This document shows, piece after piece, positions 6,890-7,639 of a stretch of 64,000 bases of DNA. Below the pieces are notes generated by a model. That model was not told the DNA's origin. It saw nothing but the letters and a program-made list of their open reading frames with translations, and did no database searches. This DNA comes from Centroscyllium fabricii (lineage: Eukaryota). Position numbers and translations under genes: made by a program. Every line of letters begins with the position of its first letter. The stretch's first letter is position 1. Location of the stretch: NCBI GenBank assembly GCA_051313645.2, contig JBNRSN020000052.1, positions 6,572,001 to 6,636,000 of the forward strand, read 5' to 3'.

Positions 6890-6994
6890 ATTATTATGGC
6901 AAAATCTGCAGGTGGTCCCAAAGCCCCTGCACAGCAAGGACACTGGGATAAAGATGATTGGCATGAAGGACCTGATAAATTTGATTGCACCTGA
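6890..6994 (+). CDS. CCT8: CCT8 alternative terminal exon A (IIMAKSAGGPKAPAQQGHWDKDDWHEGPDKFDCT*)
   Basis: acttcag| phase-0 acceptor, in frame with the previous exon; homologous to the canonical last exon; AATAAA at ~7169. Confidence 0.75.
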   Translation: MIMAKSAGGPKAPAQQGHWDKDDWHEGPDKFDCT

Positions 6995-7168
6995 CTCAGT
7001 GGCTAAGTGTGAATAGAGATGTAATGATGCAACTTTTGAATTAACTTTACAGAACTAATAATTCATAAACACATTGTGCTGGACTTACCCAATTCTAGTT
7101 TCCACAAGACTAGATGTAATTATAACCAAATTGCAAAATTGAGTCTGCAAAAATATATAAATGGCAGA

Positions 7169-7174
7169 AATAAA
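7169..7174 (+). terminator. candidate polyadenylation signal for CCT8 exon A
   Basis: AATAAA about 175 nt after the exon A stop, upstream of the exon B acceptor. Confidence 0.5.
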
Positions 7175-7561
7175 GGACACCCGCCCAACGTAGTGTGATG
7201 CCATTATGTGCCATCGAGTTTTTAATATGTTGTGCACTCACTCACTTGAGTTCATAGCTCATGTAAGCTGCATATTAATATGCATGGGAAATTCTACTTC
7301 TGTATTTCATTGAATATATTTGAAACTTAGTTGCTTCGTAAACCAGTTGAAGCCATTACAGCAAAGAGTATAGTATGAGATACAAAAAATTTCACTCCTG
7401 CAGTTGACACCTGAAAAATCTTACTGAGCAACTGCTATGTTTGTGTGCAGTTACACAAAGCATGCTTTTGTTCACTGTTGGATATGTGCATGAATCTGAA
7501 ACTCTGCTTGCCTTCCACATAATTTATGATCAATACCCTCATGGTGCTTTTTTCTTTGCAG

Positions 7562-7639
7562 ATAATCATGGCAAAACAGTCAGGTGGACCCAAACCTCCA
7601 GCACAGAAGAAAGACTGGGATGATGACCAAAATGACTGA
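7562..7639 (+). CDS. CCT8: CCT8 canonical terminal exon B (IIMAKQSGGPKPPAQKKDWDDDQND*)
   Basis: tttctttgcag| acceptor; matches the mammalian CCT8 C-terminus KKDWDDDQND; AATAAA at ~7819. Confidence 0.95.
   Translation: MIMAKQSGGPKPPAQKKDWDDDQND

Follow-up and report, generated by a model that had tools for sequence, protein, structure and literature searches.

A second C-terminal exon at the 3' end of CCT8

The window, a 64-kb stretch of Centroscyllium fabricii DNA, carries on its + strand the 3' end of a shark-type CCT8 gene. Four coding exons, the last of which ends in VLRVDQ, are followed by two exons that could each complete the protein, here called A and B:

about 3094-3210, 3666-3740 and 3820-3987, + strand: three upstream CCT8 coding exons, located by tblastn
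4988-5107, + strand: penultimate CCT8 coding exon, 40 codons, ending ...VLRVDQ at the shared donor CAG/GTGAGT (tblastn match 4982-5110)
6850-6889, + strand: 3' splice site of exon A, pyrimidine fraction 0.64
6890-6994, + strand: coding part of exon A, a 34-aa tail and TGA, orthologue of the RefSeq 'isoform X1' tail
6996-7004, + strand: weak candidate donor of exon A, TCA/GTGGCT, with its GT at 6999, 4 nt past the stop, and 4/9 consensus matches
7169-7240, + strand: candidate poly(A) signal of exon A, AATAAA followed by GU/U-rich sequence
7281-7286, + strand: TGCATG 3' of exon A, which we take to be an RBFOX-type motif; a weak lead
7487-7492, + strand: TGCATG 75 nt 5' of the exon B acceptor; likewise a weak lead
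7562-7639, + strand: coding part of exon B, the 25-aa default tail and stop
7819-7824, + strand: AATAAA of exon B

A protein search with the penultimate exon, in which 120 of 346 matches were listed, identified the gene as CCT8: PF00118 is present in all 120, the top named matches are CCT8, and among the matches listed the nearest kin are sharks, with 95% to a Heterodontus protein. Tail B matches Heptranchias at 25/26 residues, and its nearest kin are also shark proteins.

From the shared donor CAG/GTGAGT at 5107/5108, the acceptors of exon A (ag/6890) and exon B (ag/7562) are both in phase 0. The two exons are identical at 48/63 nt (E 9e-9), and the similarity ends at the exon borders; the other local matches in the flanks are 10-nt words only, at E 1.2, so the likeness of A and B is not due to chance. 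No second set of CCT8 exons was found by tblastn across the 64-kb window, and with one upstream exon set exon A does not come from a second gene copy within the window. Exons A and B are tandem homologous C-terminal exons in the same phase behind the same upstream donor. A sequence-only reading of this locus had claimed two homologous, in-frame, phase-0 3' exons after VLRVDQ, and its coordinates, frames and both peptides all held.

The window contains several other elements. A GC-rich repeat element at 917-1824 and 13329-13463 contains internal repeats, both direct and inverted, with 32-nt arms of 100% complementarity and GCGCATGCGC cores; its inverted ends, 27 nt each, occupy 1418-1444 and 1798-1824. 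This structure resembles that of a non-autonomous DNA transposon, here sitting within a CCT8 intron. A tandem array at 32246-33811 comprises 29 copies of a 54-nt unit with 97% matches and is open in three frames; its Pfam matches include no passing stretch and look spurious. On the - strand, a reverse-transcriptase fragment at 35874-36782 (RVT_1, E 3.5e-06, below the cut-off) and an ALKBH8_N match at 15135-15860 (E 1.2e-19) are likely retroelement remains.

Tail A is widespread in jawed vertebrates

We combined the penultimate-exon search with a search using the turtle tail-A region (120 of 467 matches listed), a short-protein search (16 matches) and three cluster look-ups that added members. 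Of the 279 proteins stored, 255 have an anchored spliced tail: 132 of type A, 87 of type B and 36 others (invertebrate, fungal or aberrant); since one of the searches targeted tail A, these numbers do not measure frequency. The remaining 24 were left out of tail typing, 17 of them as truncated or reading through into the intron and 7 for lack of the anchor. Two members of a cyprinid CCT8 cluster, P0254 and P0256, are TMEM135 proteins, so the 90% clusters are not clean.

Tail A occurs in chimaera, paddlefish, teleosts, coelacanth, lungfish, frogs, a caecilian, turtle, alligator, lizards, birds and many mammals, the last including Macaca, Papio, Rhinopithecus, lemur, squirrels, rabbit and cow. 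Whether this isoform was already annotated in other vertebrates had been left as a question by the sequence-only reading; it is, in many species from chimaera to macaque, mostly as RefSeq 'isoform X1' and mostly as automatic predictions with no function attached. Examples are XP_007899387.1 (Callorhinchus), XP_005548924.2 (Macaca fascicularis) and NP_001007875.1/AAH80140.1 (Xenopus tropicalis), and we take AAH records such as the X. tropicalis AAH80140.1 to be cDNA clones. Both tails are found within one species, one per protein, in Callorhinchus (P0212/P0015), Latimeria (P0083/P0217), Geotrypetes (P0122/P0219) and X. tropicalis (P0133/P0263).

Tail B had been described as the mammal-type tail, and human chains in two PDB alignments carry it, as do two ape fragments. 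Among the 16 matches of the short-protein search no human, ape or mouse tail-A record is named; coverage of the mammalian tail-A cluster extended to 15 of its 37 members. A 'hybrid internal-last exon' of human CCT8 is mentioned in 10.1101/2021.05.27.446076, the available text of which does not identify the exon.

Tail A is present in 0/19 elasmobranch proteins from 18 species, most of which have a single named isoform; 7/22 members of that cluster lie outside this count. Sharks and rays may seldom carry tail A, may have lost it or may not express it; the window adds an intact exon A in a shark. The distribution of tails across the vertebrates covered, all of them jawed, points to a duplication older than the split between cartilaginous and bony fishes, and the two-tail switch would then presumably be roughly 450 million years old.

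Codon-level constraint and residue features of exon A

A metagenome scan yielded 6 loci out of 376 candidate stretches. One of these, L004 (bird-type by its tail), keeps the window order and the same phase, with A at 5556 and B at 6305 behind the penultimate exon. A teleost-type locus, L003, has the penultimate exon and A; its exon A (1367-1480) has a deviant end with no donor past the stop, and exon B was not found in the remaining 1096 nt. Over 30 codons, exon A of the window and of L004 differ at 9 of 17 synonymous sites and 9 of 73 non-synonymous sites (pS 0.53, pN 0.12; dS 0.92, dN 0.13), giving a dN/dS of about 0.14 (Fisher p 7e-4). Against L003, pN is 0.15 and pS 0.97, with synonymous sites saturated. 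The constitutive penultimate exon has dN 0.15 and dS 1.29 against L004; exon A, with a dN no higher than this, is as constrained as the constitutive exon. Together with the single upstream exon set and a frame kept from chimaera to macaque, these values bear out the earlier proposal of an old exon duplication under coding constraint, for which dN/dS and frame conservation had been named as checks. By codon-level comparison exon A is ancient and under purifying selection, a pairwise dN/dS that is still compatible with recent loss of function in this shark.

Tail A of the window is identical to a teleost tail at 28/34 residues (0.82). A tails are longer than B tails (28-35 aa vs 20-27 aa), and 82/89 distinct A tails have two tryptophans vs 0/42 B tails, a B set that includes one tunicate-like row (P0179) which is not a true B. 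Mean net charge is alike (-1.24 for A, -1.19 for B), which weakens a simple electrostatic explanation. The first ~13 residues are nearly common to both tails; the A-specific residues, a G-[HN]-W-D motif and the second tryptophan, stay distinct from B in all jawed-vertebrate classes sampled, and the last residues of tail A differ widely between classes.

Tunicate and Mucorales fungal tails have the form KQ.G[DH]WD, closer to A than to B. In a tail tree built by a quick method on 30 columns, the window A groups with A tails and the invertebrate and fungal tails fall on the A side with weak support (79); the tree is too short to resolve the question, and we treat exon A as the ancestral-like tail as a lead only. 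Position 14 of exon A is alanine in the window and lysine in 129/132 A tails. Codons 14-15 of the window exon A (6929-6934) read GCA CAG (Ala-Gln) and so match exon B; for the lysine, the bird- and teleost-type loci carry AAG. A very short tract of gene conversion from exon B might explain this three-base Lys-to-Ala change. In comparisons among the window, L004 and L003, conserved intronic blocks do not exceed 24 nt.

Splicing of exon A

In turkey, the available text of PMC9922982 describes an extra skipped exon between the last two exons of CCT8, with inclusion in ductus deferens exceeding that in testis (dPSI -0.27, adjusted p 0.012; checked by qRT-PCR TaqMan) in one bird study of three reproductive tissues. 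From its geometry and primer sequences we identify this exon as exon A: the skipped-exon event of 448/98/643 nt (intron/exon/intron) fits the 450/99/650 nt of L004, and the TaqMan primer and probe for the long variant match exon A, at the junction into A and inside A (PMC9922982). The assay covers the junction into A, and the A-to-B junction rests on the RNA-seq event call (PMC9922982). The tissue-dependent use for which junction reads had been proposed as a check is found in this other vertebrate, between ductus deferens and testis (PMC9922982). The L004 exon A has a donor GCA/GTAAGC 6 nt past its stop, and in birds exon A would be a stop-containing cassette, spliced to B 5-6 nt past the stop. 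The representative library holds stop-read-through fragments (19 matches, 18 of exon-A type) whose residues, read from peptides, would agree with a donor GTAAG in birds and lizards; in two teleost-type fragments they would agree with GTGAG directly past the stop. We did not retain a universal cassette model, given the deviant end of L003 exon A and its lack of a donor past the stop.

A stop upstream of the last exon could also mark an NMD poison exon, and exon A might even be a pseudogene or an assembly artefact; in a coelacanth record, P0218 (Latimeria XP_064413209.1), only part of A is included and the frame shifts on entry into B. In this record the first 21 exon A residues run into exon-B-like sequence in a shifted frame, which suggests an A-to-B junction through an internal donor. 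For NMD, over 50 nt must separate the stop from the last junction downstream of it. With the L004 donor 6 nt past the stop and a turkey exon of 98 nt, the distance is far below this, and the bird mRNA, its stop 5-6 nt before the donor, would be expected to escape NMD. Codon-level selection, the same exon order in an independent bird-type contig and the lack of duplicate CCT8 exons in the window argue against a pseudogene or artefact. We consider all three largely refuted and give them almost no weight; exon A is nearly certain to be a functional alternative exon in jawed vertebrates.

Exons A and B had been proposed to be alternative terminal exons, each with its own AATAAA. In the window an AATAAA does follow each exon, at 7169 and 7819; as a general rule the proposal does not stand: neither AATAAA nor ATTAAA occurs between A and B in L004 or in the 1096 nt after A in L003. 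Bird exon A contains a stop and is joined to B, so that a poly(A) site of its own is not a conserved feature. In the window, a canonical AATAAA and GU-rich sequence lie behind exon A. The GT at 6999 is at the same distance from the exon start as the inferred teleost donor, which suggests positional homology, and scores 4/9, where known window donors score 5 to 9. Because this donor is poor, exon A, when used in this shark, would more likely terminate at the 7169 AATAAA; it would then be terminal here and a cassette in birds, with the same protein outcome either way.

The poor donor would also suit an exon that is functional in bony vertebrates and chimaera and is a fading relic in this shark, intact and rarely or never spliced. 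Such decay would agree with the missing tail A among the 19 elasmobranch proteins and with the Lys-to-Ala change at a near-invariant site, a variant seen in 0/18 exon-A-type matches (19 in the representative library). The exon nevertheless has an open 34-codon frame of the expected length, an intact AG acceptor, 28/34 residues in common with the teleost tail, a dN no higher than that of the constitutive exon, and, downstream, a canonical AATAAA trailed by GU-rich sequence. We therefore think a relic improbable and consider it quite likely that exon A is used in this shark.

If exon A is used, its role could lie in the RNA, its 3' UTR or poly(A) site setting stability, location or dose, with the peptide kept since CCT8 needs a working tail. 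An end at its own AATAAA in the window would allow this, as would two tails alike in net charge and in their first ~13 residues. Bird inclusion, by contrast, adds just ~98 nt before an unchanged B 3' UTR (PMC9922982), and a UTR function needs neither the G-[HN]-W-D motif nor the second tryptophan that are held distinct from B. We regard an RNA-level role as unlikely and favor a role for the peptide.

The acceptor pyrimidine fraction is lower for A than for B both in the window (0.64 vs 0.77) and in L004 (0.55 vs 0.86), and the weaker acceptor would make exon A the regulated exon. Between A and B, TGCATG occurs twice in the window and three times in L004, with one copy 75 nt (window) or 86 nt (L004) 5' of B. 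Its enrichment is weak: without correction for the 42 tests, the shuffle p is 0.15 in the window, 0.010 in L004 and 0.41 in L003. Candidates for setting the tail switch would be splicing factors of the muscle or neuron type.

The CCT8 tail inside the TRiC chamber

The CCT termini line the septum and contact substrates, according to the accessible parts of 10.1101/2022.03.25.483853 and PMC6599039. The CCT8 C-terminus touches actin subdomains 1 and 3 (PMC9113939, available text). In a 2026 preprint (bioRxiv 10.64898/2026.01.22.701072, available text), the CCT8 C-tail cradles alpha-tubulin, not beta-tubulin, via Y210, R214 and R221, reaches CCT1 and covers the tubulin dimer interface, in a CCT2-mutant complex. 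The structures described for the CCT8 tail are of tail B only. Modelled as a monomer, the chimaera A isoform has a disordered tail (pLDDT <50 over 524-554) with no beta-strand at its start, giving no support to a strand-based reason for the duplication. We found no publication that shows tail A as a protein or within TRiC and no functional study of exon A (four tail-A peptide motifs match 0 papers), in a search that largely excluded the subscription literature.

We propose that exon A is a tandem duplicate of the last CCT8 coding exon, kept from chimaera to macaque. When spliced in, it would bring its own stop and replace the default tail B with a longer tail that has a second tryptophan. The swap would retune, by tissue, the hold of the tail on alpha-tubulin and actin inside the TRiC chamber. 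Judged from the residues of the two tails, tail A would alter the reach and the aromatic contacts of the alpha-tubulin clamp, and it is somewhat probable that tail choice tunes the handling of cytoskeletal substrates. Specialisation of TRiC by the CCT8 tail had been suggested from the sequence, and the tubulin preprint supplies a concrete substrate for it (bioRxiv 10.64898/2026.01.22.701072, available text). We lean towards the account as a whole (an ancient duplicate, a stop-driven tail swap and tissue-wise retuning of the hold on alpha-tubulin and actin), in which the substrate effect is predicted from tail-B structures.

The tail swap might serve another partner instead, such as a cofactor, a degron reader or beta-propeller clients at the septum. 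CCT termini, those of CCT8 included, hold mLST8 between the rings (PMC6599039), and a C-terminal degron has been reported on CCT5 (PMC9929631), both from the available text. A fixed C-degron would sit poorly with last residues of tail A that vary between classes, and the CCT8-tail-specific contacts found in print are with alpha-tubulin and actin only (bioRxiv 10.64898/2026.01.22.701072; PMC9113939; available text). Another partner is, in our estimate, very unlikely, and alpha-tubulin and actin remain the substrates we favor.

Relation to known systems and significance

Tandem duplicated exon substitutions number 236 human events, 77 of them C-terminal, in the available text of PMC8373072 and PMC9741552. 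CCT8 resembles them in having homologous tandem exons and interchangeable, ancient and constrained C-termini, and differs in that its exclusivity comes from the stop in the upstream copy. The human tandem-exon table of PMC8373072 (accessible main text and supplement) gives 0 matches to CCT8, against 5 for PKM as a control; in the accessible supplements of PMC9741552 (not the full event list), PMC11632617 and PMC5740500, searched without a positive control, CCT8 is likewise absent.

The RefSeq isoform X1 records represent the same exon and the same tail, orthologous to exon A of the window. A tissue-specific TRiC can be built with CCT6B, the testis paralogue of a CCT subunit; CCT6B is a whole-gene paralogue, whereas CCT8 would use a splice swap of one substrate-facing tail. 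The turkey event concerns the same exon, a cassette in turkey and possibly terminal in the shark; in its available text, the authors do not remark on homology to the last exon, on conservation or on the position in the chamber (PMC9922982). A RefSeq-predicted isoform and one turkey measurement were thus already known, with the duplicate nature of the exon unremarked in the available text (PMC9922982). New here are the intact shark copy, the tying of the turkey tissue data and cassette geometry to exon A, and the link to alpha-tubulin.

TRiC is usually seen as one fixed machine, and its tissue specialisation is an open question. Exon A gives a natural two-state switch at the tail recently found to cradle alpha-tubulin. 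Perhaps, and we put this forward tentatively, at somewhat less than even likelihood, jawed vertebrates make two kinds of TRiC by splicing, with the alpha-tubulin tail switched by tissue, tail A as the ancestral type and tail B as a vertebrate novelty; current structures would then represent one of two machines only.
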